A stretch of 64,000 bases of DNA, from the NCBI GenBank assembly GCA_964597345.1, contig CAZQXK010000001.1:94777-158776 (forward strand), read 5' to 3'. Below, one piece after another: positions 8,563-34,994 of the stretch; position 1 is the first letter of the stretch, and each line of letters starts with the position of its first letter. Below the pieces are notes generated by a model, which saw only the letters and a program-made list of their open reading frames with translations, did not search any database and was not told the DNA's origin. The stretch is from an uncultured Thermodesulfobacteriota bacterium (GTDB taxonomy: Bacteria; Desulfobacterota; Desulfarculia; JACQYL01). The position numbers and the translations under genes are program-made.

Positions 8563-8615
8563 GGAGGAGTTCAAAACGACCGGGAATAGCCAGATGATTC
8601 TGGAGGGGGTAGTAT

Positions 8616-8873: not shown

Positions 8874-8897
8874 ACTACTTTTTTGGATTATAAGAGC

Positions 8898-9496: not shown

Positions 9497-9593
9497 GGTG
9501 TAACAAGGCAGGATGGGGTCATGGCACCCCTAATGGCGGTCGGATGGCGGCCTGCGCGTGCGCTTCCCGCAGCCTCCCGCTGGAAGAACAGGA

Positions 9594-14111: not shown

Positions 14112-14119
14112 AACATCCC

Positions 14120-14260
14120 GTTGAAAAACAGCATTTCGGACAGGCTGTTCCAAAACGATCAGATGCAAGGCGCGCGAATCCCGAGGAATGAAGCGTACAA
14201 CCCCTACGTTGCAATGACGCAGGATGAAGCGCAACACAGCAGATCGCTTTTTTCAACAGC
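14120..14260 (-). repeat. intergenic palindromic repeat, copy 2 (inside the Mo-hydroxylase operon, between L and S subunit genes)
   Basis: GTTGAAAAACAGC...GATGCAAGGCGCGCGAATCCCGAGGAATGAAGCGTACA...GTTGCAATGACGCAGGATGAAGCGCAAC...GATCGCTTTTTTCAAC. Confidence 0.8.
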
Positions 14261-16586
14261 CTGATGAGTTCTCCCGAAACTCGATTCGGTCCAGGGCGGA
14301 CAGCACCCGTTCCGGAGTCAGGGGTAATCGCCGGATGCGTATTCCGGCGGCGTCCGCCAGTGCGTTGGCCACGGCGGGCAACGGGGCGTTGATGGAGATC
14401 TCCCCCACCCCCTTGAGGCCGAAGGGCCCCGTCTCCTCATAGGTTTCCACCCGCCGGGATTCCATGTCCGGCGCGTCCTTGGCCGTGGGCAAAATGTACG
14501 TGGCGAAATTCAGGGTGCGGCCTTCTCCTTGGTCCACCACGTAGTCTTCATACAATGCGTATCCCAAACCCTGGACGATGCCTCCCTGGACCTGCTGGTC
14601 GTAGAGCTGGGGATTGATGACGCTTCCCGCGTCCGTGACCGCCAGGTATCGCACCACCTGAATGCGACCCGTGAGTTCGTCCACCTCGATGTACGCCAGG
14701 TGGGCCGCGTAGGAAAAAAGAAGGTGAGGCAGGCCGAAAACCGGGGAATTGCTTTCCATCCGGATGCGTTCCCGGCACGCGGGAGCCCGCCACTGATACG
14801 TGCATTCCCGCTGGGAAGGGGACATGGAGCGGGCTACCGAGGCCAGCGGCGCATCCCTTCCCGAAGGAAGATGGCGGACGATGCCCGGCAGCAAGTGAAA
14901 TTCCTCGGGCGAGGGAGCCATAATCATGAGGGCGGCCTGGTCCAGGATCCGCTTCTTGAGCAGACGGGCGGCTCCCGTCAGGGCCTGGGCGTAGGTGTAC
15001 GTGGTGCGGCTGGCTGCGGACGTACAGGAGGGAAGGGTGCGGTCCGTATCCGGAAGCACCAGGTCCAGGCGTTCCGCGTCCTGATTCAACAGGTGGCCCG
15101 CCACCTGAAGGCAGGTGGACGCGTTGCCTTGACCCATGTCCGGAACCCCGCAGGTAACCGTGATACGGCCTTCGGGGGTCAGGCGGATGAGCGCCTGGGC
15201 GAAGTCCGGAATGATCGGGCCGTACCCGGCGCCGTGGGCCGTACAGGCCAACCCCGCTCCGCGCTTCTTGAAAGGGGCCGCACCGTTCTTCCAGCCTTCC
15301 CGTTCCTTCCAGAGGGGATGCCGTTCCACTTGCTCCAAACATTCCAGCAGGCCCGTGGACTGGGTCAGCGTGACGCCCACGGGGTTGCGGTCGCCTTTCC
15401 GGACGGCGTTCCGCATCCGAAATCGCAGCGGGTCCACCTGAAGCCGGGCGGCCAACAGGTCCATGACCTGCTCGAGGGCCGCGGTGACCTGCGGCGCCCC
15501 GAATCCCCGGAAAGGACCGCCGGCCGGGTTGTTCGTGTACACGCACCGGCCGTGTATCCGGACATGGGGAATTCGGTAGGGACCGCCCGCGTGCTCCACG
15601 GCCAGCGCCAGGATTTCTCCTCCCAGGTGTTCATAAGGCCCGTTGTCCAGATCCAGGGAGCATTGAAGCGCATGCAGGAGGCCGTCGCTTCCGGCTCCCA
15701 GGCGGTATCGGACGCGGCCGCACAGGCGTTTCACCCCGGCCAGAAAGCTTTCTTCCCGGTCCCACCACATTTTCACGGGACGCCCTCCGGAATGCAGAAC
15801 GGCGAGACCCAGAAGGCACTGGACCGTGCACCCGTCTTTGCCTCCGAAAGCGCCCCCCAGGTAAGGAGCCACGATACGCACCCGATCCCTTTCCAGTCCC
15901 AGCGCTTCGGCCGCCTCGGTCCGATCGCGGAAGGGCGACTGGGTGGAGGCTACAATGACGATCCTTCCGTCCTCGTCCGCATAGGCCCAACCCGCTTCCG
16001 TTTCCAGGTAGGCATGTTCCTGTCGGGGTAATTCAAACTCGGCGTCCACCATGGTGACGGAGGGTTCCATGTCCTCCAGGCCGTTTCCCTTGCATACGGT
16101 GAGTTCGGCCAGGATGTTTCCCGAAGGATGATCCTCGTGGATCCGCGGAGCCCCCTCCGCCAGAGCCTCATCCACCGAAAACACCGGCGGCAGGGGTTCC
16201 AGCCGGACGCGCACGGCGTCCAGCCCCCGGGCCAAAGCCTCCCGGCTTTCCGCAAGGACCAACGCCAGGGCGTCGCCGCGTCGCCGCACCTTCCGGTCCA
16301 CCAGCACGGGTTGATCCTTGATCACGATGCCCTGCCGGTTGGAACCCTTCACGTCCCGGTGCGTCAACACCGCCGTCACGCCGGGGGCGGTCCGGGCCGA
16401 TTCCACCTCCAGCCCCAGCAGCAGGGCGTGCGATTCCTCGGACCGTTTGACTCCGGCCCACAGGAAATCGGAGCCGTAATAGTCCGCGGCGAAACGCTCC
16501 CGTCCGGTGATCTTGCTCCAGCCGTCCGCCCTCGGAAAGGGGACGCCGATCTGAAGCGGCCCGGCGGGGCGGTCAGTTCCGGCCAT
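14253..16586 (-). CDS. molybdopterin-binding large subunit of a xanthine dehydrogenase/aldehyde oxidase family enzyme (CoxL-like)
   Basis: About 777 aa. Ald_Xan_dh N-terminal and Mo-cofactor-binding C-terminal regions (GGAFGGK, GPFRGFGAPQ-type motifs). Start taken as MAGTDRPAG. Confidence 0.8.
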   Translation of the reverse strand: MAGTDRPAGPLQIGVPFPRADGWSKITGRERFAADYYGSDFLWAGVKRSEESHALLLGLEVESARTAPGVTAVLTHRDVKGSNRQGIVIKDQPVLVDRKVRRRGDALALVLAESREALARGLDAVRVRLEPLPPVFSVDEALAEGAPRIHEDHPSGNILAELTVCKGNGLEDMEPSVTMVDAEFELPRQEHAYLETEAGWAYADEDGRIVIVASTQSPFRDRTEAAEALGLERDRVRIVAPYLGGAFGGKDGCTVQCLLGLAVLHSGGRPVKMWWDREESFLAGVKRLCGRVRYRLGAGSDGLLHALQCSLDLDNGPYEHLGGEILALAVEHAGGPYRIPHVRIHGRCVYTNNPAGGPFRGFGAPQVTAALEQVMDLLAARLQVDPLRFRMRNAVRKGDRNPVGVTLTQSTGLLECLEQVERHPLWKEREGWKNGAAPFKKRGAGLACTAHGAGYGPIIPDFAQALIRLTPEGRITVTCGVPDMGQGNASTCLQVAGHLLNQDAERLDLVLPDTDRTLPSCTSAASRTTYTYAQALTGAARLLKKRILDQAALMIMAPSPEEFHLLPGIVRHLPSGRDAPLASVARSMSPSQRECTYQWRAPACRERIRMESNSPVFGLPHLLFSYAAHLAYIEVDELTGRIQVVRYLAVTDAGSVINPQLYDQQVQGGIVQGLGYALYEDYVVDQGEGRTLNFATYILPTAKDAPDMESRRVETYEETGPFGLKGVGEISINAPLPAVANALADAAGIRIRRLPLTPERVLSALDRIEFRENSSGC

Positions 16587-18582
16587 GCTCTCTCCTTTCG
16601 GATGGAAGCGGCGCCGCATCCGCCGGGGAACTCTCACGATCCCGGCCCTCTTCGCCGTAGTAGGTCAGGGCTAGCAGGGTGATGTCGTCCGCCTGTTCCG
16701 CGGCTCCCGCGAAAGCCCGCACCTCGTCCAGGATCCGGGCCGTTTTTTCCCTCAAGGGTTTTTCCCGGACGGCCGTCAATGCAGATTTCAGCCGCGCGTC
16801 CGTGAAGAGTTCCAGTCTCTCGTTCTGGGCTTCCGTCACGCCGTCCGTAAACAGAAAGAGCGTATCTCCCGGCTTCAAGGCGATGCTCCCGGTCTCGAAG
16901 CGCAGTCCTTCCATGGCTCCCAGGAGGGCCCCCGCCACCCGCGGCGGGACGGAGATCGCTCCGTGTCGGGGCAGAACCAGGGGAGGATTGTGCCCGCCGT
17001 TGGCGTATTCCACCCGGCCGGTTCTCAGGTCGATCATGCCCAGAAAAACCGTCACGAACATGCAGGATTCGTTCTCTACGGCCAATTCGTCGTTCACCCG
17101 GCGCAAGGTTTCCGCCGGTCCGGCGCCCCCCGCGGCCACGGCCTTGATCAGGGTTTTGGCTACGGCCATAAACAGGGACGCCGGCACCCCTTTTCCGGAA
17201 ACGTCCCCGATGGCGAAGCAGATCCGGTCCGCGTCCACCCGGTAGAAATCATAGAAGTCTCCGCCCACTTCCCGGGCGGGAACGATCACGGCGTGGATGT
17301 CGAATTGAGGCTCATCCGGGAAGGGGGGAAACAGCTTGGGCAGGATTCCCATCTGGATGTCCCGGGCGATATGGAGTTCGCTCTCGATGCGTTCTTTGGC
17401 GCGGGTGGTTTCGGTAAGCCGGCGTATGTGTTCCTTGAGGGCGCGGGTCATATGTTCGAAGGCCCGGGTCAGGCGCCCGATTTCATCCCCGGATCGCACC
17501 CGTGGCAGCGGGGCGTCGAGATTTCCGGCGGCGATGTCCACCGTGCTCCGGGCCAGCGCCCTCAAGGGTTTTGTGGTGGAATGGGCCGCGAGGTACACGA
17601 TGCCCAGGAGCGCCAGGAACCCTCCCGCCCCCAGAAAGAGCACATTCCGCGTCAGGCGGGATGCGCCTTCCATGAGTTCTTCTTCCGGAAGAAACACACC
17701 GAGAGACCAGCCGCCGAATCCCAGGGGAGCAAAGGCAAGCCATCCTTCTTCTTCCGTGACGATGCTTTTCCACCGGACAAATCCGCTTTCACCGCGCACC
17801 ATGGCGCGCCCCACGGTCCGGATACGGGTGTCGCCCAGCATTTCGGCGACGCCGAACAACGTCTCGTTCATGACCAAGTCCCGCCGGGGATGGGTAATCA
17901 GGGTTCCGTTTCCGGAAAGCAGAAACCCATACCCGGTTTTCTCGACCCGTATGGAAGACACTACATCCTGCAACCAGTCCAGGGCGATGTCGGCGGTGAC
18001 GATGCCGGCGAAACGGCGTTGCCCCTGGTCGGTTCGGTGGAAGGGGACGGAGTATGTAGCCATCAAGGTATCGCCTCCCCCTTCGTCGAAATACGGCTCG
18101 CTCCATACGGGCTGTTCCAGGTGTTTAGGAATCTGGTACCAATCCGTTTCGGGGTAGTGGTAGGTATCGCAGTCCAGAAACATCGTATGGACTCCGTCCG
18201 AGCCTCGGTAGGCATAGGGTGCAAAGCAGTCGGGTGTCCCGGCGAAGGCGTGGGGTTCCAAGGCGACGGCGGAACCGAACAGGTTCGGATGGTCCGTGAC
18301 CACGCCTTGCACCAGCCGCGGCAGGTCGTCCGGCTCCAGGGAGAAGCGTTCCAGCAGGCCGCTCATGGTTTGAACCACGGTCTCCACCGTCGAAAGCATC
18401 ATGCCTATCCGATTCGAGGTGGATTGAGTCAGAAGGCTCGCGTTGGCCTGGACACTCTCGAGAACAATTCCTCGAGATATTTCGTAATTGTTGGCCAAGA
18501 CCAGGAAAAACACCAGGAAGCTGCCTGCAAACAGAAGCAGGAAAAGCTTGAAGGCGACGCCCCGGTTTCTAATCCCTTTCAC
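16573..18582 (-). CDS. sensor phosphatase: TM + Cache-like periplasmic domain + HAMP + PP2C/SpoIIE domain (RsbU-like)
   Basis: N-terminal TM helix, about 280-aa extracytoplasmic segment, second TM, HAMP (EIGRLTRAFEHMTRAL). C-terminal SpoIIE motifs (GDVSGKGVPASLFMA, DLRTGRVEYANGGHNPP, FTDGVTEA). Confidence 0.75.
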   Translation of the reverse strand: MKGIRNRGVAFKLFLLLFAGSFLVFFLVLANNYEISRGIVLESVQANASLLTQSTSNRIGMMLSTVETVVQTMSGLLERFSLEPDDLPRLVQGVVTDHPNLFGSAVALEPHAFAGTPDCFAPYAYRGSDGVHTMFLDCDTYHYPETDWYQIPKHLEQPVWSEPYFDEGGGDTLMATYSVPFHRTDQGQRRFAGIVTADIALDWLQDVVSSIRVEKTGYGFLLSGNGTLITHPRRDLVMNETLFGVAEMLGDTRIRTVGRAMVRGESGFVRWKSIVTEEEGWLAFAPLGFGGWSLGVFLPEEELMEGASRLTRNVLFLGAGGFLALLGIVYLAAHSTTKPLRALARSTVDIAAGNLDAPLPRVRSGDEIGRLTRAFEHMTRALKEHIRRLTETTRAKERIESELHIARDIQMGILPKLFPPFPDEPQFDIHAVIVPAREVGGDFYDFYRVDADRICFAIGDVSGKGVPASLFMAVAKTLIKAVAAGGAGPAETLRRVNDELAVENESCMFVTVFLGMIDLRTGRVEYANGGHNPPLVLPRHGAISVPPRVAGALLGAMEGLRFETGSIALKPGDTLFLFTDGVTEAQNERLELFTDARLKSALTAVREKPLREKTARILDEVRAFAGAAEQADDITLLALTYYGEEGRDRESSPADAAPLPSERREHGRN

Positions 18583-19549
18583 AGAAGCTCCGGTGGAAGA
18601 CCGAGTATTCGGGTGCGCGGCGAATCAGGCCTTCTTCGGTCATCACGGAAGTCACGCGTTCGAAATCCTCCTGGGAGAGACGCCCCAGCGCGTCGAAATT
18701 TCCATCGGGAGCCATGAGTTCCAGAATGCGCGAAAGCATCCAGCTCTGGTGAACCCGACTGGCCGGAATATGGGCCCGTTTCATGTATGCGAGGACGATG
18801 TCCAAAGACTCCTCGCGATGGGCGAACGCGTAGCGCCAACCTTCCAGGGACGCGCGAACGAACGCCCTGCACAGGAGAGGGTGTTCGTAAAGCATCTTCT
18901 CTGTGGTGTAGATTCCGTCTTCCGGGAAGTTCAATCCGTACTCATGAAAGAAGAAGGTCGTGAGTTCATCGGGGTTCAGGCCGGAGTTCAGGAGGGTATG
19001 GTATTCGTTGTACCACATGGCCGAAGCCGCATGGACCCCGTCCTTTAGGAACAGGTTGATGGTGGAGGATTGGGGCGCGACATGAACCGAGATCCCGCGC
19101 CTTCGGAAAAACGCATTGGGTTGGATCTGGAAGAGGGGGCCCCACAGGCTCACCTTCCGGCCGTTCAGATCCGCGGGCGTCCAGATGCCCGACGCCTTCT
19201 TGGCCACAAGCATAAGAGCGGACCGCTGGATCATTTGGGCGATGTTTACGATGTCGTGGCCTTCGGAACGAAGCTGGATGCCCCGGGAAAGCCACAGGGT
19301 GGCGAACTGCGATTCCCCCGCGAGCAGGGAACGGTCGGATGGGTGCTTGGGTCCGCCCGTGGACAGGGTCACATCGAGACCTTCACGGGCATAGAAGCCT
19401 TTTTCGTAAGCCGTGTAGTATCCCGCGAACTGCGCCTGAGGCGCCCATTGGGGCAGAAACGACACGGTTACCGTGGATTCCTCCTGCGCGTGTACGGTTC
19501 CCGCCCACAGGAAAAGGAACACCGGAAGCAGCGTGATGAAAAGACGCAT
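18569..19549 (-). CDS. ABC transporter substrate-binding protein, NMT1/THI5-like (nitrate/sulfonate/bicarbonate family)
   Basis: Signal peptide (MRLFITLLPVFLFLWAGTVHA) and periplasmic-binding-protein fold features (QWAPQAQFAGYYTAYEKGFY). Confidence 0.6.
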   Translation of the reverse strand: MRLFITLLPVFLFLWAGTVHAQEESTVTVSFLPQWAPQAQFAGYYTAYEKGFYAREGLDVTLSTGGPKHPSDRSLLAGESQFATLWLSRGIQLRSEGHDIVNIAQMIQRSALMLVAKKASGIWTPADLNGRKVSLWGPLFQIQPNAFFRRRGISVHVAPQSSTINLFLKDGVHAASAMWYNEYHTLLNSGLNPDELTTFFFHEYGLNFPEDGIYTTEKMLYEHPLLCRAFVRASLEGWRYAFAHREESLDIVLAYMKRAHIPASRVHQSWMLSRILELMAPDGNFDALGRLSQEDFERVTSVMTEEGLIRRAPEYSVFHRSFCERD

Positions 19550-19969
19550 TCATCCTCCGGAGACGCCGGAAAATTCCAGGGTCAAGAAGTTCCGGTCGCC
19601 GGATCTTCGATACGTGACGCGGTCCGCCGTGTTCCGGATGAACAGGATGCCCAGGCCTCCCGGTTTCCGGTCCGACAGGGGCGCGGACACATCGGGAGCG
19701 GCAACGGCCAGGGGATCGAAAGGGATCCCGTGGTCCTCGAAACGGAGGATGCAGAGCCCTTCGCCGGTGACATCCACGGCCACCGCCACATCCCCGGGAG
19801 TCTCCGGATAGGCATGGAGGAAGATGTTCACCAGGACTTCTTCCGTCGCGAGTTCCACCTGCGCTCTTCGGGATTCCGGAAAGCGGCGCTTCGTTATGTG
19901 GTCGGATACGAATTGCACCAGGTCTCTCAGCTGATCCATTCGGGCGGGAGTGCGTTTTTCCGGCATCAT
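19550..19969 (-). CDS. anti-sigma regulatory factor / serine-protein kinase (RsbW/SpoIIAB-like, HATPase_c_2)
   Basis: MMPEKRTPARMDQLRDL... with HATPase_c motifs (GGLGILFIRNTADRV). The N-terminal extension in the ORF track is repeat-derived and is removed. Confidence 0.6.
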   Translation of the reverse strand: MMPEKRTPARMDQLRDLVQFVSDHITKRRFPESRRAQVELATEEVLVNIFLHAYPETPGDVAVAVDVTGEGLCILRFEDHGIPFDPLAVAAPDVSAPLSDRKPGGLGILFIRNTADRVTYRRSGDRNFLTLEFSGVSGG

Positions 19970-20003
19970 GTATCCACGTGGGACCGAACCCGGTGTGGTG
20001 TTA

Positions 20004-20166
20004 TCAGGCCGTTGAAAAACGCGATCCGCCGTGTTGCTCTTCATCCTTGGTTATTGCGGCGTACGGGGTTGTACGCCTCATTCCTCAGGATTCGCCCCAC
20101 GCCTTCGGCGTGGCTTGCATCTCACCGTTTTGCACCGGCCTGCCCGTAATACGGTTTATCAATTGT
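20004..20166 (+). repeat. intergenic palindromic repeat, copy 3 (between the RsbV-like and RsbW-like genes)
   Basis: GTTGAAAAACGCGATCCGCCGTGTTGCTCTTCATCCTTGGTTATTGCGGCGTACGGGGTTGTACGCCTCATTCCTCAGGATTCGC...GGCCTGCCCGTAATACGGTTTATCAATTG. Confidence 0.8.
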
Positions 20167-20255
20167 TATGGGAAGAAGCCGGATCGAGCCATGCGCAACC
20201 CCGCCGGCGCCGAAAAGGTTCCGCCCGGCGGGCGGGGATTCCATGCCGCCGCATG

Positions 20256-20582
20256 TCAGTCCGGACCGGCATCCACGGAATCATGAATGGAAATGATGGA
20301 GGCGAAACCGGACAGGTCGAAGACCTCCTTGACGGCTCCTCTCAGCGAGGCGATGAACAGGCTTCCGTTTACGGCTTTCAGTTTCTTGGCCGTGGTGAGA
20401 ATGACCCTCAGCCCGGCGCTGCTGATGTAGTCGAGACGGGAGAAATCCATGGCGAAATCCCGTCGCCCCTCGCCGATCCATTGGCTCATGTGCTTTTCAA
20501 AGTCCGGCGCGGTAACGGCGTCCATGCGTCCCGTCACCGTGACGACATGGGTCCGGTCCCGCGTTTCAACGGATATTTCCAT
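20256..20582 (-). CDS. STAS-domain anti-sigma-factor antagonist (RsbV/SpoIIAA-like)
   Basis: MEISVETRDRTHVVTVTGRMDAVTAPDFEKHM...DFSRLDYISSAGLRVIL contains the phosphorylatable Ser in the DYISSAGL context. GGGAG ribosome-binding site before the M5 ATG. Confidence 0.7.
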   Translation of the reverse strand: MEISVETRDRTHVVTVTGRMDAVTAPDFEKHMSQWIGEGRRDFAMDFSRLDYISSAGLRVILTTAKKLKAVNGSLFIASLRGAVKEVFDLSGFASIISIHDSVDAGPD

Positions 20583-20840
20583 GGGAACTCCCATCGGTTC
20601 GGTTTCGGAGATGCGTGTTTCAGGATGCGGAACGCTCCTTGTGAACTATCGTCCGGGGCGGAAAAAACTTTACAGCTTCCATGGCGGAGTGGGGCGGATC
20701 TCCCGTCGGGCGAATCCGGCGCGAAAGCCGCATGCGGCGCGGACGGGCCGCGACGCGCGGGCGGTAAGGACGAAAGGCCGCATACGGCGTCCGTCCCTGC
20801 TCTGCTGACGGATTCTTGCTACTCAGTGCGCCGACAACCC

Positions 20841-20985
20841 GCTGATAAACATTGTTTCGAGCAGGCTGATCAAGAAGGATGATAGGCAAGGCGCACGAAT
20901 CCGGAGGAATGAGGCGTACAACCGCTACGCCGCAATGACCAAGGATGAAGTGTAACGCAGCAGATCGCGTTTTTGATCCGCCTGC
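20841..20985 (-). repeat. intergenic palindromic repeat, copy 4
   Basis: GCTGATAAACATTG...GATAGGCAAGGCGCACGAATCCGGAGGAATGAGGCGTACAACCGCTACGCCGCAATGACCAAGGATGAAGTGTAACGCAGCAGATCGCGTTTTTGATCCGCCTGC. Confidence 0.8.
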
Positions 20986-21401
20986 TAAAGCTCGAACGTA
21001 CCCTTGAAGTACGTGTTCTTAACCGATCTCGCCTTGGTTTCGGCCCACTCCTGCAGCCCCATTTTGCGGATCAGACAGAGGTTGAACACCTTGGTGTTGT
21101 GGGGGACCTCCGCGGCCCGGTCCGCGTAAGGATGCAGATGATCGCACGGGAAATCGGCGCATTCGCTGCACAGAGACAGGCCCTTGCCGGAAATGCAGCG
21201 GAATACCTTGCAGGGCTGTTCCATGTTCATGAACTCGATGCACCCTCCTTCGTCCCGGCAGCCTCTGCACACGGCTTTTTCAAAGGGAATGTCCAATCGC
21301 GCGGCGATCTTGGTCCTCAAGGATTCGTTTTCGCGAGCCTGAAACATGGCGCAATTGAAACAATCCAAACCGCAGGGTGCGGTCATATGGGCGTAATCCA
21401 T
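20985..21401 (-). CDS. DUF3795-like cysteine-rich protein (paralogue 1)
   Basis: MDYAHMTAPCGLDCFNCAMF...CRGCRDEGGC...CSECADFPCDHL shows the multi-CxxC pattern. Paralogous to 23292-23768 (APCGLYCGVCAI...CRGC...CAQC...CHQCAEFPC). Confidence 0.5.
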   Translation of the reverse strand: MDYAHMTAPCGLDCFNCAMFQARENESLRTKIAARLDIPFEKAVCRGCRDEGGCIEFMNMEQPCKVFRCISGKGLSLCSECADFPCDHLHPYADRAAEVPHNTKVFNLCLIRKMGLQEWAETKARSVKNTYFKGTFEL

Positions 21402-21757
21402 GAGTGTCTCCCGTTGATGATGTTTGTGAAAAGTTCCCACCGGTTTTGAAGCGCCGGGATTCCTGCCGTCCCTTGACACGTTGGGAGTGGCCGCAGATCC
21501 TCCATAGCCGGCTCGAACACGCACGGGGAGGACAGGACGCTGCGCTCTCCATGACGGAACACAGACGGTCGGGCGAAGCCGTGAATCCGATTTCAGAGGG
21601 GCGGTTCCGAGCGCATCGCCGCAATGCGGGGTTCCCGGTGGCGGAGTATAGCTCTCCGCGCCATGCTGTCATCGGATATCATATTCCGTTTTCGGAGTCA
21701 TCCCTTCGGAACGGTAAGGAGTTCTTCCGGTTATGGTCGGGTACTTGGGGCTTTCCG

Positions 21758-21905
21758 TTATCAGGCCGTCGAAAAACGCGATCCGCCGTGTTGCGCTTCA
21801 TCCTTCGTCATTGCGGCGTACGGGTTGTACGCCTTACTCCTCAAGATTCGCGCGCCTTGCATTTCATCGTTTTTCACCCGCCTGCCCGAAATACGGTTTG
21901 GCGAT
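21758..21905 (+). repeat. intergenic palindromic repeat, copy 5
   Basis: TCAGGCCGTCGAAAAACGCGATCCGCCGTGTTGCGCTTCATCCTTCGTCATTGCGGCGTACGGGTTGTACGCCTTACTCCTCAAGATTCGCGCGCCTTGCATTTCATCGTTTTTCACCCGCCTGCCCGAAATACGGTTTGGCGATG. Confidence 0.85.
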
Positions 21906-22073
21906 GTTATCCGACGCGGGGTGGTGGAGGATCCTGACGCGCCTGTGGTTCGCGGAAGGCCCGGTATCTTGCTGCGGGCGTGGTCGCCGATGCCGCTTTT
22001 CCATGGGCCCGCCGTACCGCTTTGTCTTCTCAAGTGGGGACGGAGTTTGTTAGGATGACCCTGTGGGCAGGCG

Positions 22074-22212
22074 GGTGATAAACGCGATCTGCGGCGTTGG
22101 ACTTCATCCTTCGTCGTTGCGGCGTACTGTAGTACGCCTCATTCCTCAGGATTCGCGCGCCTTGCATCTCATCGTTTTTCACCCGCCTGCCCGCAATACG
22201 GCTTGTCAACGG
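22074..22212 (+). repeat. intergenic palindromic repeat, copy 6 (tandem with copy 5, about 170 bp apart)
   Basis: GGTGATAAACGCGATCTGCGGCGTTGGACTTCATCCTTCGTCGTTGCGGCGTACTGTAGTACGCCTCATTCCTCAGGATTCGCGCGCCTTGCATCTCATCGTTTTTCACCCGCCTGCCCGCAATACGGCTTGTCAACGG. Confidence 0.85.
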
Positions 22213-22258
22213 GCTGGTAGCGTGCTCCGGAACTTTGGGTCTGCAAAAGGAGTGTTTC

Positions 22259-23212
22259 ATGATCCGAATTGTGGGTGGAACGGTTTTTTTCTTTTCCGTG
22301 TTCCTGTTGATCGCTTCGAGCACGGGAGTCACGGCGGGGTTCGCGGCGCCTGGTGAGACCGACGAGGCCGGCGTGCTGGGAACGGCTCAATTCACACCAA
22401 CCGCCTCGGAGGTGATCCCGGCGGGAAAGGAACCTCAAGCGGGCGACGTCTGGGTCGAGGATAGTACTCTTATGGAGTTCGTATGGATTCCCGGGGGATG
22501 CTTTCAAATGGGGAGTCCGGAGGACGAAGAGGGCCGGAAGTGGGACGAGGGCCCCGTACACGAAGTCTGCGTGGACGGTTTCTGGATGGGCCGATATGAA
22601 GTAACGAACGCACAGTACCGATTGTTTGCCTCCCATCATGATTCGGGGGAATGGAGGGGGCATTCGCTGAATTGGGACGACCAGCCTGCGGTCAACGTTT
22701 CCTGGGAGGATGCCCGGGCCTTCGCCCGCTGGATGGGGGAGGTTCACAACGGGACGGTTACATTCCGCTTGCCTACGGAGGCCGAATGGGAATATGCCTG
22801 CCGGGCCGGGACCCAAACGGCCCGCCATTGGGGAGAGGATCCCGACGAAGCATGCGGGTATGCCAACACCCACGACCGGTCCATGAAGGAAGCCCTGGAT
22901 TTCTTCTGGCCTCACCATGACTGCGACGACGGGTATGTGCTCACGGCGCCGGTGGGCCGATTCCGGCCCAACCCCTTCGGATTGTACGACATGTTGGGGA
23001 ACGTCTACGAGTGGTGCCGGGATCGGTATATGGGGGACGCGTATTCACGGCGCGAACGGTTCAATCCCGTGGTGGAGGAGGGTATCCAGCGGGTGATCCG
23101 CGGGGGGAGTTTCCGGGACGGCCCCAAGCAGGTCCGATGCGCCGCCCGTGACAGAAATCCGGAAAATGATCGGAAAGCGCTTGTGGGTTTCCGCCTGGTC
23201 CGTAATCCGTGA
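22259..23212 (+). CDS. formylglycine-generating-enzyme (FGE/SUMF1) family protein, secreted or membrane-anchored
   Basis: N-terminal hydrophobic segment (MIRIVGGTVFFFSVFLLIASSTG). FGE-sulfatase domain motifs (RLPTEAEWEYACRAG, YDMLGNVYEWC, RGGSF). Confidence 0.75.
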   Translation: MIRIVGGTVFFFSVFLLIASSTGVTAGFAAPGETDEAGVLGTAQFTPTASEVIPAGKEPQAGDVWVEDSTLMEFVWIPGGCFQMGSPEDEEGRKWDEGPVHEVCVDGFWMGRYEVTNAQYRLFASHHDSGEWRGHSLNWDDQPAVNVSWEDARAFARWMGEVHNGTVTFRLPTEAEWEYACRAGTQTARHWGEDPDEACGYANTHDRSMKEALDFFWPHHDCDDGYVLTAPVGRFRPNPFGLYDMLGNVYEWCRDRYMGDAYSRRERFNPVVEEGIQRVIRGGSFRDGPKQVRCAARDRNPENDRKALVGFRLVRNP

Positions 23213-23291
23213 ACCGGGTTGTACCCGCTCGGCGCAGGCCGATTCCCAGTGCGGGTCCGTGCGGGTTCGGACCGGGTCTCTTGCCGGTTTG

Positions 23292-23768
23292 TCAGCCGTC
23301 CAGATCCAATTCCGTTTTGCACCGGTTGCACCGCCGGACTCCTCGAAACACCTTGTGGCCGCACTGAGGGCAGAGGTATCGGGCTTCCTCGTCGCGCACC
23401 CATTGTTCCGCGCCCACGTTCCTCCAGTGGGGAACGGCGCGAAGGATGACCCGTTTTCCCACTTCCATGGGAAAGGTATCGATGAGGGTGCAGGGAAACT
23501 CGGCGCACTGATGGCAGCCCTGGTAGCCTCTGGCCTGCGTGCAGTCGCGGATATCGCATTGAGCGCAATACAGGAAGCGTGTATCGGAGAGGCATCCCCG
23601 GCATCGGATGTCGTTGGCGGACAACCGGTCGCTGTCGGGCAGTTTTCCCTGGTAGACGTCCACGAGGCGTTCCTTCAACTTCCGGTTGTCGTCCCGGTCC
23701 GCGTACCATATGGCGCACACGCCGCAGTAGAGTCCGCAAGGGGCCAAATGATGGGGATTCATGGTCAT
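23292..23768 (-). CDS. DUF3795-like cysteine-rich protein (paralogue 2)
   Basis: MTMNPHHLAPCGLYCGVCAIW...CRGCLSDTRFLYCAQCDIRDCTQARGYQGCHQCAEFPC...CPQCGHKVFRGVRRCNRC. Confidence 0.55.
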   Translation of the reverse strand: MTMNPHHLAPCGLYCGVCAIWYADRDDNRKLKERLVDVYQGKLPDSDRLSANDIRCRGCLSDTRFLYCAQCDIRDCTQARGYQGCHQCAEFPCTLIDTFPMEVGKRVILRAVPHWRNVGAEQWVRDEEARYLCPQCGHKVFRGVRRCNRCKTELDLDG

Positions 23769-23885
23769 GAGTCGTCTCCCGGCCTCCGGAGGTGTTCGTC
23801 GTCGGCCGCTGAAAGGTTCCGCCCGCCGTGGGATTCCGGGACATGAAGATGAGTCGCCGGCGTGTCGGTTCTCTCCGGATCGCTG

Positions 23886-24791
23886 TCAGTCGTGCATGAT
23901 ACGAAACAGGGGATGGTCGTCCGTCCGAGGCTGGACTCGATCCAGACGAGCCTGATAGGCCAGCAGGGCATCCGTGGATGCGCATGCCGGGTAGACCCAG
24001 GGGGCGTTGGCGAGTGATCCGTACAGCAGAAAGTCGGCGCCGCAACACAGGGGCAGACCGAGCACCGCCGAACCCGCCGCCGCGAACGGCAAAGCTCCTT
24101 TCTCCCGGATTCCCCACTGGTACAGCGAATTGGCCGGGGCGCATCCCGCCGGCAGGCCGAGAGCGTTCTTCACCTCCCAAATGCTCCGGGCGGCCCATCC
24201 CACCCCGGCCACCCCCAGCACTCCGACGTCCACGAGGACTTGTTCCACCCCGGCCCGTTGGGCTGCGGGGAGCAGCTTTTCACGGAGCAACGCCAGCACG
24301 CCCTGGGGTTTCATGGCCCTGGGGCTGAAGGCCAATACGACGGCGGTCTTGACGCCCGATTCGCGAATACACGCCAGTTCTTCTTCGGTGAAGTCCTCGG
24401 CGATGGAATTGTAAATCAGCCGGGAAGCGGTTTCCGAGCCGGCAAACCTCCGGAGAATCGCCATGCGGACCCCGGGGTCCGGGGAATCCACCAGCATGGG
24501 GGCGTCCGTATGGTCGGCCACGAATTCGAGATACCGGATCAGAGCCTCCCGGGTTTCCCCGATTACATCGATGATCCGGGGGTTACCGCTCCATTGGGAC
24601 CATGCGGCTTCCCGGTCCAGCAGTTCCCGGGCCGCCGCCGCGTCGAACAATCCCCGTTCCGGGTCGGACACGATGCGGTGGCCGCGGAAGAACAAGCTCC
24701 CGACGAGGGCCGTGGGGTATTCTCCGATACGTCCTCCCAGGGTGACCTTCCCCACTCGCACCAACTTCTGTTCCGCGTGGAATTCAGGCAT
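23886..24791 (-). CDS. MtrH-like (pterin-binding) methyltransferase, probable methylcorrinoid:tetrahydrofolate/H4MPT methyltransferase
   Basis: MPEFHAEQKLVRVGKVTLGGRIGEYPTALVGSLFF aligns with the MtrH N-terminus ([34 protein letters not shown]). Start overlaps the upstream URO-D stop by 8 nt. Confidence 0.7.
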   Translation of the reverse strand: MPEFHAEQKLVRVGKVTLGGRIGEYPTALVGSLFFRGHRIVSDPERGLFDAAAARELLDREAAWSQWSGNPRIIDVIGETREALIRYLEFVADHTDAPMLVDSPDPGVRMAILRRFAGSETASRLIYNSIAEDFTEEELACIRESGVKTAVVLAFSPRAMKPQGVLALLREKLLPAAQRAGVEQVLVDVGVLGVAGVGWAARSIWEVKNALGLPAGCAPANSLYQWGIREKGALPFAAAGSAVLGLPLCCGADFLLYGSLANAPWVYPACASTDALLAYQARLDRVQPRTDDHPLFRIMHD

Positions 24792-25902
24792 CCAGCGTCT
24801 CCCTTTTTTCCCTGAGAAATTCCGCAAAGGATTCTCTTTGGGTAACCCGCACCGGGATGGTGTCCAAATGGTCCGGAATGGGAAGACGGCCCAGGGTTCG
24901 GCATGCGGCCACCGCCGCGTGGACATGCTCCGGCGGGGTGTCCACGGGGATTTGATTGAGATACAGGATGAGTCGTCCGTCCCGCCCCATGCCGTCGATG
25001 TAGTTCCGGATGCGTTCGACGACGGCGTCCGCCGGGCCGTCCATAATCAGGGCTGCATCCACGCCTGCGGTGACGGTGACGTCGTGCTTCCGGGCGAAGG
25101 CTTTCACGCGTTCCGGGCCCAACAAATTCAGGTCGGGATCCAGGACACTCAGGAATATGGGACAGGTTTGGAGCTTCTGGGTCATGTATCGTTCCGGATC
25201 GTGGCTCTTGGATTCCCCCCATTGGCCGAGCGTGACCACGGCGCCTCCCACGAGTTCCCTCAGGCGTTGGGTGTAAGGAAGAACGAATTCGTCGAACAGG
25301 TCCAGGCTCACATTGGGTGGTGACGCCCAGGCATCGGCCCCGAAAGCGGCTTGATCGGGCCGGCCGATCTCCTCCCGCATGGCCCGGATGTAAGGAGCGA
25401 GCACCTGCTCGCACAGAAATTCCAGGAGCCTGTGGGCGAAAGCGGGATCCGTTTTCATGTCCTTCACGAAAGGCACATATCCGCGGATGTTAAGGGCCAG
25501 GCTGAAAGGAGCGCAGAAATATACCCGGGCGGGCCGTCCGGTACGTTCCATGTACAGGCGGTTGATGCGATGGATATAGGGCATACGCCCGGATCGATGG
25601 GGATCCGGAATACGCAGGCGGTCCAAATCGGCCGGCTCGCGGATGAGCGGCTGCCGGCGGTCGATGTCCGGCATGGCGTAATCCGTGTAAATCATCTTCT
25701 GGCCCAAGGCTTCCGCCTCGATGTTGTACATGTCCCAGGAATCGTTGGGGGCGTCGAAACCGTAATATTCCGTGACCAGAAACTGGACTTGCGTGAACAA
25801 GTCCGAATCCGTGTAAAAGCGGCGAAAAGGAACTTCGGCCAGGCGGGCGGAATGATCGTGGCACTGGGCGGCAATGCGGATGCGCTGCGGTTTCGCGGTC
25901 AT
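24784..25902 (-). CDS. uroporphyrinogen-decarboxylase (URO-D) family methyltransferase (MtaA/MT-I-like)
   Basis: URO-D/MtaA-family length (372 aa) and fold signatures. ATGA overlap with the corrinoid protein gene upstream. Confidence 0.65.
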   Translation of the reverse strand: MTAKPQRIRIAAQCHDHSARLAEVPFRRFYTDSDLFTQVQFLVTEYYGFDAPNDSWDMYNIEAEALGQKMIYTDYAMPDIDRRQPLIREPADLDRLRIPDPHRSGRMPYIHRINRLYMERTGRPARVYFCAPFSLALNIRGYVPFVKDMKTDPAFAHRLLEFLCEQVLAPYIRAMREEIGRPDQAAFGADAWASPPNVSLDLFDEFVLPYTQRLRELVGGAVVTLGQWGESKSHDPERYMTQKLQTCPIFLSVLDPDLNLLGPERVKAFARKHDVTVTAGVDAALIMDGPADAVVERIRNYIDGMGRDGRLILYLNQIPVDTPPEHVHAAVAACRTLGRLPIPDHLDTIPVRVTQRESFAEFLREKRETLDA

Positions 25903-26543
25903 TCTTTTCCCCCTCTTATCCAGGCTTCGGCAATGCGTACGGCTGCAAAGGCGTCTTCCCCGTAAGCGTCGGCCCCCGCCTCGGATGCAAACTTCGAGGT
26001 CACGGGAATGCCCCCGACCATGATGCGCATCCGGGGTCGCAATTGCTGTTCGTCGACGAGTCGGATGATCTTAGGAATGCTTCGCATGGTAGTGGACATA
26101 TACGCCCCGATGCCCAGGACGTCCGGTTCGAGTTCCATCGCCTTTTCGATAAACACGTGATCCGGTACATCCACCCCCAGATCCGTCACCTGGAACCCTG
26201 CGCCCACCAACATGGCCGCCACGATGTTCTTCCCCAAGTCGTGCAGGTCTCCTTGGACGGTTCCCAGCAGCACCCTTCCTGTTTCGCTTTGGGCGTCTTC
26301 CGAAAGTCGGGATCTTAATTGGGCGGTCACTTCGTTGAATGCCTCGGAACTCATGACGACTTCCGGGAGAAAGTATCGCCCCCGGTTCCACAGGTTTCCC
26401 ACCTCCCGGATGGCGGGCAGGGCGGCGTTGTGGAGTATGTCGGCGGCCGGAGTCGCATCCCCCACGGCCCGGCGGGTCTTTTCTCCCGCTCCGAGGATGT
26501 CTCCGTCGATGATGGCCTCTTTGATTTCCTCAATGATGGACAT
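25899..26543 (-). CDS. cobalamin-binding corrinoid protein (MtbC/MtmC/OdmA-like)
   Basis: B12-binding DxHxxG motif (GTVQGDLHDLGKNIV) followed by a Rossmann-like B12-binding domain (GFQVTDLGVDVP...GIGAYMSTTM), after an N-terminal helical cap. Confidence 0.8.
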   Translation of the reverse strand: MSIIEEIKEAIIDGDILGAGEKTRRAVGDATPAADILHNAALPAIREVGNLWNRGRYFLPEVVMSSEAFNEVTAQLRSRLSEDAQSETGRVLLGTVQGDLHDLGKNIVAAMLVGAGFQVTDLGVDVPDHVFIEKAMELEPDVLGIGAYMSTTMRSIPKIIRLVDEQQLRPRMRIMVGGIPVTSKFASEAGADAYGEDAFAAVRIAEAWIRGGKE

Positions 26544-26854
26544 GTGGACCCTTTCCGGAAGCAGTGAAGCATGATTCGGATCCGTTCTCCTCTTCGGGAG
26601 GAAGATCGGGCCGACAGGGTTTCAGGATGGACTCCGCTTTTCGTGCCAGATTTTGCCCGATTTGTAAACCCCGCGTTGCAGGCGGCGGGCTTTCGTGCGT
26701 GCATGCATGCGAATCACGAAAAGGCAGGGAGACGAAACAGGGCGTGATGCAGTACAATAAGACAGTCGGTCCGGTACGGACGCGGAGAGAAGCGCACCGC
26801 GATGGGTCTACCGTGAATGGAGGCAGGATGTTTGCCGGAAAGGGGGGGACGCAC

Positions 26855-28658: not shown

Positions 28659-28685
28659 ATCTCCTTTCTAACAGCCCGTTGATAC

Positions 28686-28846
28686 CCCGTATTTCGGGCG
28701 GACTGATGGAAAGCGCTGAAATAGACGCCGAACCTCGGCGCGGCGAATCCTGAGGAATGAGGCGTAAGTACGCCACACCGCCATGACGAGAGGGGAAGTG
28801 TCACGCCGTTGGCGTCACCGCAGATCGCGCTTTTCAACAGCCTGCA
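28686..28846 (-). repeat. intergenic palindromic repeat, copy 7 (degenerate left arm)
   Basis: ...CGGCGAATCCTGAGGAATGAGGCGTAAGTACGCCACACCGCCATGACGAGAGGGGAAGTGTCACGCCGTTGGCGTCACCGCAGATCGCGCTTTTCAACAGCCTGC. Confidence 0.7.
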
Positions 28847-28939
28847 AAGGACTCCCGGGTCATGTACGGTAGGTCGCCGTCCTCGTGCGTTCTCTACCGA
28901 CGAACCCGGGATTGTCAAAGGAGAGGCAGGCTCGAAGAG

Positions 28940-32531: not shown

Positions 32532-34994
32532 TCACACGGCGGAGGAAAAGCCGTGCATGTCCTTGGCGTGCGGCGCCGTGTTTTCATAGTACATTTTCCA
32601 GGTTTCATTGAAGGCGTGTTCAAAGGAGCGGTCTTCCATATAGGCGCGGGCCATGCTTCCCATCCTGCGGAGCATGTCCGGATCACGAATCAGGGAATCT
32701 ATGGCTTCCCTCATGCTGCGGACGTCATGAGCGGAAACCACAAGACCCGTACGACGGGGGATCAGGTTTTCCTGGGGTCCTCCGAGATCCGTCACCACTA
32801 CGGGCAGACCCGAGGCTTGAGCTTCCAGCACGACATTTCCGAATGTATCCGTGCTGCTCGGGAAAACAAACAAATCGCAAGACGCATACAGTTTTGCCAA
32901 TGCTTCCCCCGCCAGGTATCCTGTAAAGCAATGAGGCGTACCCTCCAGTTTCTCCTGCAACAGGCTTTGATAGGGTCCTTCCCCGGCCAAAAGGAGAGAT
33001 ACGCGATTCCCGGAATCCAGGAGGCTTTTGAATACGGACACGAGCAAGTCCAGGTCCTTTTCCTTGGATATCCTCCCCACGTACAACAGTTTGAAGCTTT
33101 CCAGGTCCGTGTAGCGGCGGATGAATTGGTCATCCCGCTTGTCCGGGTGGAAACGAACGATATCGATACCCCGAGGGAACAGGCGTATCTTTTCGGGAGC
33201 GATGCCCTTGTCCGCGAGTTCCCGGCCGGTGCTTTGAGAAGGTACGTATATGGCATCCAGTTGGTCGTAGTACCAGATGACGTACTTCCACATGAGTTCT
33301 TCCAGAGAATGGTCACGCGTCAAGTACGCCGTGTATTGGGGAAGTGAGGTATGGTACGTGCCGCTGATGGGGAGCTTGAGGATCTTGGAGACGGCCAGTC
33401 CGGCCAGCCCGACCGGTCCCGGGGTCGCCGTACTGATATGGGTGAAACCCTGAACGTGACAGAATTGCAGGATATCCAGGAAAGGGGGACAGAACAGCTT
33501 CAGGAGGGGGTATTCGGGCAGATCGTACATTCCGATGGGCCTGAAATTGCGTACCCCCGGGGAGTCAAGAGATGGATCCGCGCTGCACGTGATTACGGTG
33601 AACTGTTTATGGGTTTTTCGCGCCAACGCGAGTTGCTGTTGAAGGGTCAGCGCGACTCCATTGACTTCGTAATAGGTGTCCGTGAAGTGCGCCACGTTCA
33701 TGGGCCGTATGTTTTCTCGTACAGGAGAAGAGTGCACCCCGAAACGTTCGGCCATGGTATGAGCCATCCGACGATCCCCGGCGAACAGGGAAAAGGACAC
33801 GAAGTACGGTGAAAGCAGCACGAATAAAGCACCGGCGGAGCTTGCGGACTGCAAGAGGTTAAGCAGGTTCCCTCCCGAGATCTGTCGGATCAGGTTCTCG
33901 CCGAAATGCAACAGCACGCGGTTCGATACCCTGTTCACGAATTCAAACCATGTCGATTCCGGCTCTTCTTGTTCCTGGTACCCCCAGCGGATGATACGGC
34001 GAAGCTCGGGGTCGTCTTGAATGAGCCTCTGGCCCTCCCGGCGCAACAGATGTTGAACACTGGAAGTATGGTGCGGTTCCTCGAAGTGTTTTCGAGGTTT
34101 CCAGAGCCCATAGATCTTGGACCATACGCCGCTGCGGCCCGGAGAATCTTCTTGAACCAGGAATCGGTCCAGAAACCGTAGAAACAGGTCTCTGTGCAGA
34201 TGTTTGGAGAGGTGAAATCGCTGCTTGTAGAATTGGTACGCAATGCTGTACAAATTATGGGACATTCGCAAGGGAGATGAAGGTTCTCCGTGGATTTGCG
34301 CAGTGCCTGATTGGACACCCAGGAGAAAGTCATTCAGGTCTCGAGCTCCGGGAACTTCCGTGTAGACGCGAGCCACATCCAGAGAACTGTGATCGTCGGA
34401 TCCTCCCACGAGATGTTTCATCCACGGTTCCGGAAATGCAGGCTCCAGACGATGCTTTTCGGCCAGTTTCTCGATGTGCGATGGTGTCAATGTACGAAGA
34501 ATGACATCCAGAACCTGGTTCAATAACGCCTCTCGCGCACCGTTGAGTTCAAAAGTCTTGAATAGAAGCAGGAAACGTTCAAAGTGATGAACGGTCAACC
34601 GTTCATTAATCGAGTAGAGAGGATGCGCAAGAGCGTGAACTATATTCTGAGATTGGAGATAAGTTACAAGATCTAAAATATTGTGGCGTAATTTTTGGAT
34701 CTCTGGCACGTGGTCTTCGCGGATGTCGTAGATAAGTACATGCGCTTTACATTGATCCTCGGGAAAGTATGTCGTGGTCTCCATGCTTAAGAAAGTGTCG
34801 GGCAAATGAGCGATTTCTAATGCCCCGGCTATGGTGTTGTGATCCGTTATGGTTAGCAGAGACATGCCTCTTTCCCTGGCGCGTTTCACAATACGCTTGG
34901 GTTCCGTGAAGCTTTCCGGGCAACCTAGTTTCTGAAGCACCCATGAGTTCGGCCTCTTGGAGAACTTGGAATGAACATGAAGATCCGCTTTCAT
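32532..34994 (-). CDS. fusion protein: N-terminal PHP-family phosphoesterase domain + C-terminal GT4 (group 1) glycosyltransferase
   Basis: MKADLHVHSKFS...ITDHNTIAG...HPLY are PHP metal-binding motifs. C-terminal retaining GT4 signature (EGFGNVVLEAQASGLPVVVTDLGG). 820 aa. Confidence 0.75.
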   Translation of the reverse strand: MKADLHVHSKFSKRPNSWVLQKLGCPESFTEPKRIVKRARERGMSLLTITDHNTIAGALEIAHLPDTFLSMETTTYFPEDQCKAHVLIYDIREDHVPEIQKLRHNILDLVTYLQSQNIVHALAHPLYSINERLTVHHFERFLLLFKTFELNGAREALLNQVLDVILRTLTPSHIEKLAEKHRLEPAFPEPWMKHLVGGSDDHSSLDVARVYTEVPGARDLNDFLLGVQSGTAQIHGEPSSPLRMSHNLYSIAYQFYKQRFHLSKHLHRDLFLRFLDRFLVQEDSPGRSGVWSKIYGLWKPRKHFEEPHHTSSVQHLLRREGQRLIQDDPELRRIIRWGYQEQEEPESTWFEFVNRVSNRVLLHFGENLIRQISGGNLLNLLQSASSAGALFVLLSPYFVSFSLFAGDRRMAHTMAERFGVHSSPVRENIRPMNVAHFTDTYYEVNGVALTLQQQLALARKTHKQFTVITCSADPSLDSPGVRNFRPIGMYDLPEYPLLKLFCPPFLDILQFCHVQGFTHISTATPGPVGLAGLAVSKILKLPISGTYHTSLPQYTAYLTRDHSLEELMWKYVIWYYDQLDAIYVPSQSTGRELADKGIAPEKIRLFPRGIDIVRFHPDKRDDQFIRRYTDLESFKLLYVGRISKEKDLDLLVSVFKSLLDSGNRVSLLLAGEGPYQSLLQEKLEGTPHCFTGYLAGEALAKLYASCDLFVFPSSTDTFGNVVLEAQASGLPVVVTDLGGPQENLIPRRTGLVVSAHDVRSMREAIDSLIRDPDMLRRMGSMARAYMEDRSFEHAFNETWKMYYENTAPHAKDMHGFSSAV

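Follow-up and report, generated by a model that had tools for sequence, protein, structure and literature searches.

Organization of the locus

The DNA analysed here, referred to as the window, is a 64,000-nucleotide stretch from an uncultured Thermodesulfobacteriota bacterium (contig CAZQXK010000001.1 of assembly GCA_964597345.1, positions 94,777 to 158,776 of the forward strand). Its minus strand carries a candidate corrinoid methyl-transfer system composed of three genes that are packed without gaps from position 26543 down to 23886. The first gene (25899..26543) encodes a 214-amino-acid corrinoid (B12-binding) protein (CP), recognised by its Pfam domains, which would act as the methyl carrier. 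The second (24784..25902) encodes a 372-amino-acid protein of the UroD superfamily (PF01208), called URO-D here, which belongs to a clade lacking zinc ligands and is the proposed methyltransferase I (MT-I), the substrate-specific component. The third (23886..24791) encodes a 301-amino-acid MtrH/MtgA-type protein (PF02007), a predicted methyl-corrinoid:tetrahydrofolate methyltransferase, or methyltransferase II (MT-II).

Read directly from the sequence, the stop codon of the CP gene and the start of the URO-D gene share ATGA, and the end of URO-D overlaps the start of the MtrH-like gene by 8 nt (ATGCCTGA). A purine-rich Shine-Dalgarno-like motif precedes each overlapping start. The same genes were called independently by the Joint Genome Institute (JGI) on the near-identical metagenome contigs 3300027592 and 3300005145. 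Domain matches and coordinates thus agree with the initial annotation of this DNA, which had described a three-component corrinoid methyltransferase operon in the order CP, URO-D, MtrH-like with both overlaps. That annotation also found the methyl donor not obvious. The content of the operon agrees with this, and no MT-I of the MttB, MtmB or MtgB type is encoded in it.

Upstream of the CP gene, a 284-nt intergenic region (26544..26827) separates its start from a divergent ADP-ribosylglycohydrolase gene present in the JGI calls, and presumably holds the promoter or other regulatory sites. No sigma-70-like consensus was found in this region, and promoter and terminator scans were nowhere above shuffle expectation. 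The locus has no Rfam match, the only sub-threshold one being a spurious eukaryotic Vault RNA, so no cobalamin riboswitch is predicted upstream of CP.

Pfam scans covered 39 open reading frames (ORFs) of the window. Among these there was no RACE/RamA-type corrinoid activase, and a tblastn search of the 64 kb with the RACE protein of a homologous locus (L022) was also negative. The initial annotation, too, had seen no such activase in the window. A RACE/RamA gene in or near the cluster, one of the features used here to recognise a three-component system, is therefore not present within the window. The scanned ORFs also included no gene for carbon monoxide dehydrogenase/acetyl-CoA synthase, AcsE, the corrinoid iron-sulfur protein or other one-carbon (C1) pathway proteins. 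The annotation had named an acsE-type Wood-Ljungdahl context as an observation that would speak against its reading, and none is seen among these ORFs. Homologues of Pterin_bind and LctP proteins are likewise missing from the window by tblastn.

The corrinoid protein and the MtrH-like methyltransferase

CP has the composition expected of a methyl carrier in a three-component system: a B12-binding domain (5e-28), a B12-binding_2 domain (1.3e-16) and the DxHxxG motif, which reads DLHDLG at residues 99-104. Among NCBIfam models, MtgC and MtbC come closest to it, with 165-176 bits, and all of its matches lie under the curated cut-offs.

The MtrH-like protein matches PF02007 at 4.3e-65. Over residues 4-298, it is ~50% identical to the crystallised MtgA of Desulfitobacterium hafniense (PDB 6sj8, E = 4.3e-93) and keeps the active-site Asp (LVDS), for which the mutant entry 6sjo has Ala. 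Matches to the MtrH subunits of the methanogen Mtr complex are weaker (1e-38 to 4e-51). Its score against the NCBIfam MtgA equivalog NF047990 is 353 bits, under the cut-off of 550, and for this reason the protein is regarded as an MtgA-type MT-II and not as an MtgA orthologue. The similarity to crystallised MtgA places it on the tetrahydrofolate (THF) side of the reaction. Family, similarity to 6sj8 and overlap with the operon together give what is expected of an MT-II, a methyl-corrinoid:pterin methyltransferase encoded with its CP. With the MtrH-like protein as the predicted MT-II, URO-D would take the substrate side by elimination. In the METHYLTRANSFERASE assignment, the MtrH-like protein would thus be MT-II and URO-D would catalyse the other half-reaction. 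The initial annotation had left URO-D as either MT-I or MT-II; the folate side now appears settled in favour of the MtrH-like protein, and MT-I falls to URO-D by elimination.

Family and active site of URO-D

URO-D matches PF01208 at 1.9e-27, and its structure model (pLDDT 90) has the UroD/MtaA fold. There are at least 746 matches to relatives; the two closest are 99% and 73% identical, and the other matches listed are 55-63% identical. Those that carry names among the matches listed are metagenome-assembled genomes (MAGs) of Desulfobacterales, Desulfarculaceae or Thermodesulfobacteriota, together with Olavius symbionts. Against 1.84 billion representative proteins, 1,037 matches were obtained at E <= 1e-3 and 93 at <= 1e-30, and the core family is a single representative in this set. 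Judged from these matches, URO-D belongs to a discrete, uncharacterised clade that is almost confined to Desulfobacterota MAGs.

Neither URO-D itself nor a narrow family profile matched any sequence in the PDB. An extended-clade profile of 62 sequences, the only one broad enough to reach MtaA, UroD and CdmB in the PDB, matched MtaA (4ay7) at 1e-32, UroD at 1.7e-24 or weaker, and CdmB (9rui) at 1e-12 over a partial stretch. MtaA/CmuA-type models are the NCBIfam matches for 58 of the 62 clade representatives. URO-D itself lies far under the cut-off of every NCBIfam model; it scores 42.6 bits against the corresponding model TIGR01463 (mtaA_cmuA), for which the cut-off is 235.4.

URO-D has no match to TIGR01464 (hemE) at E <= 0.01. 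The RQAGR arginines of UroD are absent, the aligned segment being AAQCHDH. A HemE identity was rejected on these grounds and on the better profile match to MtaA than to UroD; clustering with HemE, which the initial annotation had set beforehand as refuting its reading, is not seen in these profile comparisons. Where MtaA has its zinc ligands (in LHICGN and PGCGIA), the aligned residues of URO-D are not ligands, and no HxC motif occurs anywhere in the protein. Adding MtaA with MAFFT --add to the alignments of the family was unreliable at 19% identity, and the HMMER profile alignment and the absence of HxC were used instead. Membership in the MtaA/MtbA/CmuA S-methyltransferases (TIGR01463) was also rejected, given the score under the cut-off and the missing His-x-Cys...Cys zinc site. 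In the profile alignment, D57 and H326 of URO-D fall at D86 and H339 of human UroD, residues that MtaA does not have. The predicted active site of the clade is therefore mixed: the Asp and His of UroD are kept, and the arginines of UroD and the zinc ligands of MtaA are missing. In this superfamily, His-Cys-Cys is the mark of S-methyltransferases, and Cys is replaced in the O-methyltransferases (Kountz and Balskus, PMC10418091). CdmB and MtvB are precedents for a zinc-free MT-I (PMC13222342).

Gene neighbourhoods of URO-D homologues

Homologues of URO-D were found at 63 loci in a species-representative genome set, all of them in MAGs. The complete triad recurs at several loci. The order CP, URO-D, MtrH is found at L001/L005 (URO-D 73% identical), where an MFS transporter gene follows, and at L006 (63%). 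L158, whose URO-D (47%) lies outside the core family, has IclR, MtrH, CP and URO-D (with an 8-nt overlap), then two SCFA_trans genes. CP-URO-D pairs occur at L153 (62%) and L157 (63%). At L156 (61%), URO-D, CP and Pterin_bind genes follow each other on a single strand. Pterin_bind and CP genes also lie near URO-D at L022 (56%), which has a RACE activase as well, and at L037 (53%), and both are found at L054 (45%). URO-D family members thus accompany CP and an MT-II of folate type, which may have one or the other of two unrelated folds. Since the MT-II is swapped for a non-homologous type and CP and URO-D are kept, URO-D likely performs the half-reaction that does not involve folate. This swapping is the strongest argument for that role. 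URO-D is accordingly placed as the substrate-specific component by elimination and by its pairing with CP and two alternative types of MT-II. A neighbour-joining tree included two of the triad loci, the window and L006, and their sequences take a basal position within the core family.

Three types of transporter adjoin homologues on the same strand: the MFS protein of L001, the two SCFA_trans proteins of L158, and LctP permeases at 12 loci, where a GntR/FCD regulator is also present. The LctP permeases of these loci are 80-85% identical to each other, so the linkage counts as one lineage and one observation, and LctP with GntR/FCD was down-weighted as a clue to the substrate. A few loci also have neighbours of sulfur or thiol type. 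L153 encodes an HdrD-like CCG protein together with a C_GCAxxG_C_C protein, L156 has a CoA-disulfide-reductase-like protein that contains a rhodanese domain as well as a beta-elimination-type pyridoxal phosphate (PLP) enzyme, and L017 has a Cys/Met PLP enzyme.

Two of these loci hold further genes. At L153 (1-6912), four tandem paralogues of ~500 amino acids with lipoprotein-like N-termini and no Pfam domain lie directly upstream of the CP-URO-D pair, which is followed by the HdrD-like protein (Fer4 and CCG domains) and the C_GCAxxG_C_C redox protein. The four tandem genes were considered as MT-I candidates and rejected, being lipoprotein-like and without a domain match. L022 (5215-9709) has, divergent from its URO-D homologue, a complete second corrinoid module composed of RACE, a UroD-like protein of 320 amino acids, Pterin_bind and CP. 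The short UroD-like protein has FHSDGN where MtaA has LHICGN, a His/Asp site resembling that of O-methyltransferases.

Proposed mechanism and substrate

We consider it moderately probable that the locus encodes a corrinoid methyl-transfer system with URO-D as MT-I, CP as carrier and an MtgA-type MT-II that delivers the methyl group to THF, its activase being encoded elsewhere. Such a system would most likely strip a methyl group from a small compound in an anaerobic bacterium of the sulfate-reducer type. URO-D would bind the methylated substrate (X-CH3) and present it to the Co(I) corrinoid of CP, giving CH3-Co(III). The MtrH/MtgA-type protein would then pass the methyl carried by CH3-Co(III)-CP on to THF, yielding CH3-THF and Co(I)-CP. 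The CH3-THF would feed C1 metabolism, where it would be either oxidised along the methyl branch of the Wood-Ljungdahl pathway or assimilated. Reductive re-activation of the corrinoid would have to be supplied by an activase whose gene lies outside the window. The identities of the genes, their overlaps, the fold of URO-D, its lack of MtaA-type zinc ligands and the recurring gene neighbourhoods are shown by the sequence analysis; we infer the direction of transfer, THF as the acceptor and, by elimination, the MT-I role of URO-D.

The transporter types, the missing zinc site and the sulfur-type neighbours are together a weak pointer to a small methylated carboxylic acid, with a methyl group that would need no activation by a metal. 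Tentatively, the candidates would be an onium or otherwise activated S-, O- or N-methyl acid, such as dimethylsulfoniopropionate (DMSP) or a related compound. A methoxylated aromatic is a less likely substrate. In work of the late 1990s, extracts of marine sulfate reducers reportedly showed methyl transfer from DMSP to THF. The URO-D clade could even define a new, zinc-free substrate class of MT-I that moves the methyl group of a small methylated acid to THF in sulfate reducers and their relatives, including symbionts of gutless worms; one example would be an organosulfur acid resembling DMSP or methylmercaptopropionate. This broader proposal is speculative and, as it stands, improbable. Anaerobic DMSP pathways have been described as uncharacterised and without an assigned gene (PMC12596276).

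Several observations weigh against the assignment of URO-D as MT-I of a demethylating system. The clade has no biochemically characterised member, all 63 of its genome hits are MAGs, and its closest characterised relative, by both sequence and structure, is MtaA, an MT-II. Near one homologue, a CP-MtmB pair is reminiscent of archaeal MtmBC with MtbA, in which the UroD-family protein is the MT-II. A large caveat comes from the big Desulfobacterales sub-clade, in which the gene usually has no corrinoid gene next to it; among 29 loci flanked on each side by 5 kb or more, only 4 have one nearby. At L022, the CP, Pterin_bind and RACE proteins may serve the second, short UroD-like gene. The collapse of the LctP linkage into one lineage and the lack of an activase or C1-pathway gene within the window point the same way.

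Alternative readings

The same proteins could run in the opposite direction, in the manner of a split methionine synthase. The MtrH-type protein would load CP from CH3-THF, and URO-D would be an MtaA-like MT-II that methylates an acceptor in a biosynthetic or detoxifying reaction. Folate-side methyltransferases (MeTr, MetH) are reversible in principle. The CP-MtmB pair would fit this direction, as would the fact that the clade matches MtaA best both in structure and by profile. So would the habit of the URO-D family, which is well conserved (55-63% identity), mostly a lone gene and found in varied contexts, more like a housekeeping enzyme than part of a catabolic island. Reversal is nevertheless unlikely. 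URO-D has no His-Cys-Cys zinc site for the activation of a thiol or selenol acceptor (PMC10418091), the uptake-type transporters that follow the triads of L001 and L158 on the same strand suggest that the substrate is imported, and the characterised bacterial systems that combine CP with an MtrH-type protein (MtgABC, Mto) all run towards the pterin (PMC8630106). An aryl methyl-ether O-demethylase of the Mtv, Odm, Vdm or Mto type, acting on methoxylated aromatics, would explain the combination of CP, a UroD-family MT-I and an MtrH-family MT-II, which is the Mto architecture (PMC8630106). Zinc is also missing from some MT-I proteins of O-demethylases (PMC13222342), and the MFS transporter of L001 could carry aromatic acids. 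This is still distinctly unlikely: the URO-D clade profile matches CdmB, the sole solved member of the O-demethylase/Cdm clade of MtvB, OdmB, VdmB, MtoB and CdmB (9rui) and the only reference compared, far less well than MtaA or UroD (1e-12, partial, against 1e-32 and 1.7e-24), 58 of 62 clade representatives match MtaA/CmuA-type models, and LctP and SCFA_trans neighbours are typical of small aliphatic acids. The analogy with O-demethylases drawn in the initial annotation holds for the architecture only; the URO-D clade lies farther from CdmB, the one structure of that group compared, than from MtaA or UroD.

If URO-D were not a corrinoid methyltransferase at all, it would be a decarboxylase or another UroD-like enzyme and its corrinoid neighbours would be incidental. 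The residues D57 and H326 shared with human UroD, the lack of an adjacent corrinoid gene in most homologues and a hemL gene nearby at three of the loci examined in detail (L017, L022 and L046) would agree with such a role. We regard it as the least probable of the alternatives, and extremely so. URO-D is translationally coupled on both sides in the window, adjacency to CP, often with overlap, recurs across homologues of 47-73% identity and two types of MT-II, and both the RQAGR arginines and a hemE match are lacking. A further alternative concerns the genes downstream of the operon, two of which encode DUF3795 proteins (DUF3795-1, 23292..23768, and DUF3795-2, 20985..21401, both minus strand) and one an FGE-sulfatase-domain protein (22259..23212, plus strand). 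Either the two DUF3795 proteins alone or all three could be functional partners of the system, for example iron-sulfur electron donors replacing the RACE activase that the window lacks. DUF3795-1 begins 117 nt after MtrH on the same strand with no terminator-like site between them, the 11 conserved Cys of its DUF3795 domain, including Cx3Cx2C, suggest iron-sulfur clusters, and at L153 a non-homologous iron-sulfur/CCG protein follows CP-URO-D. Comparisons of loci from both sides led to the rejection of a partnership. At the 80 metagenome loci with DUF3795-1 orthologues (61-68% identity), no CP, URO-D or MtrH gene lies nearby, the neighbourhoods of these orthologues are not conserved, and neither DUF3795 type occurs near URO-D homologues at any of the 63 genome loci. 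DUF3795-1 is absent from the triads of L001/L005, L006 and L158, the FGE gene lies on the opposite strand, and DUF3795-2 is set apart by repeat elements. A role as partners is very unlikely, and these comparative data largely refute it.

DUF3795 and FGE neighbours

The initial annotation had placed two DUF3795 paralogues of about 12 Cys each on either side of the locus as possible metal or redox partners. Both proteins match PF12675 (4.9e-17 for DUF3795-1 and 8.6e-19 for DUF3795-2; 62.6 and 68.2 bits against a cut-off of 22.6). Both lie 3' of the methyltransferase genes and so do not bracket them; their identity is 25%, their Cys counts are 15 and 12, and the proposed partnership did not survive the comparison of loci. 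DUF3795-1 has 158 amino acids and a C-terminal CxxC...CxxC zinc-ribbon that is lacking in DUF3795-2 (138 amino acids). DUF3795-2 is ~1.9 kb beyond DUF3795-1, past the FGE gene and two repeat copies, and is outside the operon. DUF3795-1 is possibly co-transcribed with the operon, in a linkage that is not conserved.

The Cys pattern of DUF3795-1 is conserved (Cx3Cx2C...Cx2C...Cx2Cx4C...Cx2Cx4C followed by Cx2C...Cx2C) and suggests iron-sulfur or other metal binding. Its AlphaFold2 model is poor (pLDDT 67), and a fold search gave nothing significant beyond a resemblance to zinc-ribbons. The family is common, with 1,116 matches, of which the best 120 are 62-70% identical, one identical copy excepted. 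In an alignment of 13 members with DUF3795 and zinc-ribbon (62-70% identical to DUF3795-1), 15 Cys are invariant in all 13. Desulfobacterota and Bathyarchaeia are among the members that carry names. The gene mostly stands alone, and at a few loci (among L072-L151) it lies beside HdrA-, MvhD- and HdrD-like genes.

The FGE protein matches PF03781 at 1.2e-60 and begins with a hydrophobic, signal-like segment; its NCBIfam matches are all far under cut-off. The initial annotation had included a secreted FGE-domain protein in the operon. The domain and the signal-like N-terminus are there, and the gene does not belong to the operon because it lies on the plus strand, convergent with it. The Cys-rich DUF3795 and FGE genes are probably bystanders.

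Repeat element and other features of the window

An intergenic repeat element of ~150-160 nt is present in at least nine copies in both orientations, at approximately 6989-7148, 14105-14276, 20000-20160, 20826-20997, 21757-21904, 22063-22219, 28663-28857, 39340-39456 and 45550-45715, with a partial copy at 40871-40923. Oppositely oriented copies show ~70-89% arm-to-arm complementarity. The hairpin at the centre of the element is conserved (GCGGCGTAC...GTACGCC), and its terminal pairs are inverted (CAGGCCG...CGGCCTG). It has no Rfam match and looks like a REP/MITE-like element. It yields spurious 'conserved' ORF translations. Copies flank a STAS gene and the DUF3795-2 gene (the latter at 20826-20997 and 21757-21904), and upstream of the FGE gene the element occurs twice in tandem.

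Directly downstream of DUF3795-2, the minus strand carries a partner-switching module (16573-20594). It is composed of a STAS anti-anti-sigma-like protein (20256-20594), an RsbW-like HATPase_c_2 kinase (19550-20044), an NMT1/THI5-like binding protein (18569-19549) and a Cache-HAMP-SpoIIE (PP2C) sensor phosphatase (16573-18582). The region 11516-16637, also on the minus strand, has genes for molybdoenzymes of the xanthine-dehydrogenase/CO-dehydrogenase family (MoCoBD large and FAD/CO_deh_flav subunits), then an MFS transporter; in the JGI calls, a small 2Fe-2S subunit lies between them as well. A trehalose/alpha-glucan cluster at 45827-55100 encodes a TreT-type trehalose synthase, two alpha-amylase-family proteins (1033 and 661 amino acids) and a GH57 protein with DUF3536. 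The GC content is ~0.6 apart from the stretches 8001-10000 (0.43) and 34001-36000 (0.48). Several short ORFs lie in the former, which may be of foreign or mobile origin.

Significance and comparison with known systems

Corrinoid methyltransferase systems set which methylated compounds anaerobes can convert to C1 units, and with this they shape the carbon and sulfur fluxes in anoxic sediments. Their specificity resides in MT-I. The URO-D clade is widespread in Desulfobacterota MAGs from sediments and in Olavius symbionts and has no characterised or cultured member. Knowledge of its substrate would extend the methylotrophic routes of sulfate reducers by one and provide a marker gene for metagenomes.

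The MtoABCD system of Methermicoccus shengliensis and Archaeoglobus fulgidus is built alike: one cluster holds CP, an MT-I of the UroD superfamily and, as MT-II, a soluble protein of the MtrH family by which a pterin is methylated (PMC8630106). The MT-I found here is in another clade, closer to MtaA and UroD than to the CdmB/O-demethylase group. The acceptor is presumably THF, whereas that of Mto is tetrahydromethanopterin, and no activase (MtoD) is nearby. The glycine-betaine:THF system MtgABC of D. hafniense shares the MT-II, which is ~50% identical to MtgA 6sj8 and keeps its active-site Asp, and MtgC is the nearest NCBIfam model of CP. In MtgABC, the MT-I (MtgB) is of the MttB superfamily, whereas the one proposed here has the UroD fold. 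By NCBI criteria the proteins are not orthologues of MtgA (353 of 550 bits) or MtgC (176 of 370 bits), judged against the equivalog cut-offs.

The CdmBCA chloromethane system of Acetobacterium dehalogenans likewise combines a zinc-free UroD-superfamily MT-I with CP and an MT-II (PMC13222342). CdmB illustrates that a zinc-less protein of the UroD fold can act as a substrate-channelling MT-I (PMC13222342). It differs in that CdmA is a Pterin_bind-type MT-II related to MtqA, that CdmB matches the clade profile only weakly and partially (1e-12), and that the homologues of CdmB occur chiefly in Bacillota and Asgard archaea and not in Desulfobacterota. From the soluble coenzyme M methyltransferases MtaA, MtbA and MtsA and the Mlp proteins, URO-D differs in that it has no His-Cys-Cys zinc site and scores 42.6 against 235 bits for TIGR01463, and the folate-type MT-II that partners URO-D is absent from mlp clusters (PMC10418091). 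The architecture of the locus is thus known from the Mto, Mtg and Cdm systems, and its new part is a proposed MT-I of an uncharacterised clade: the locus is a well-founded candidate and not a surprise.

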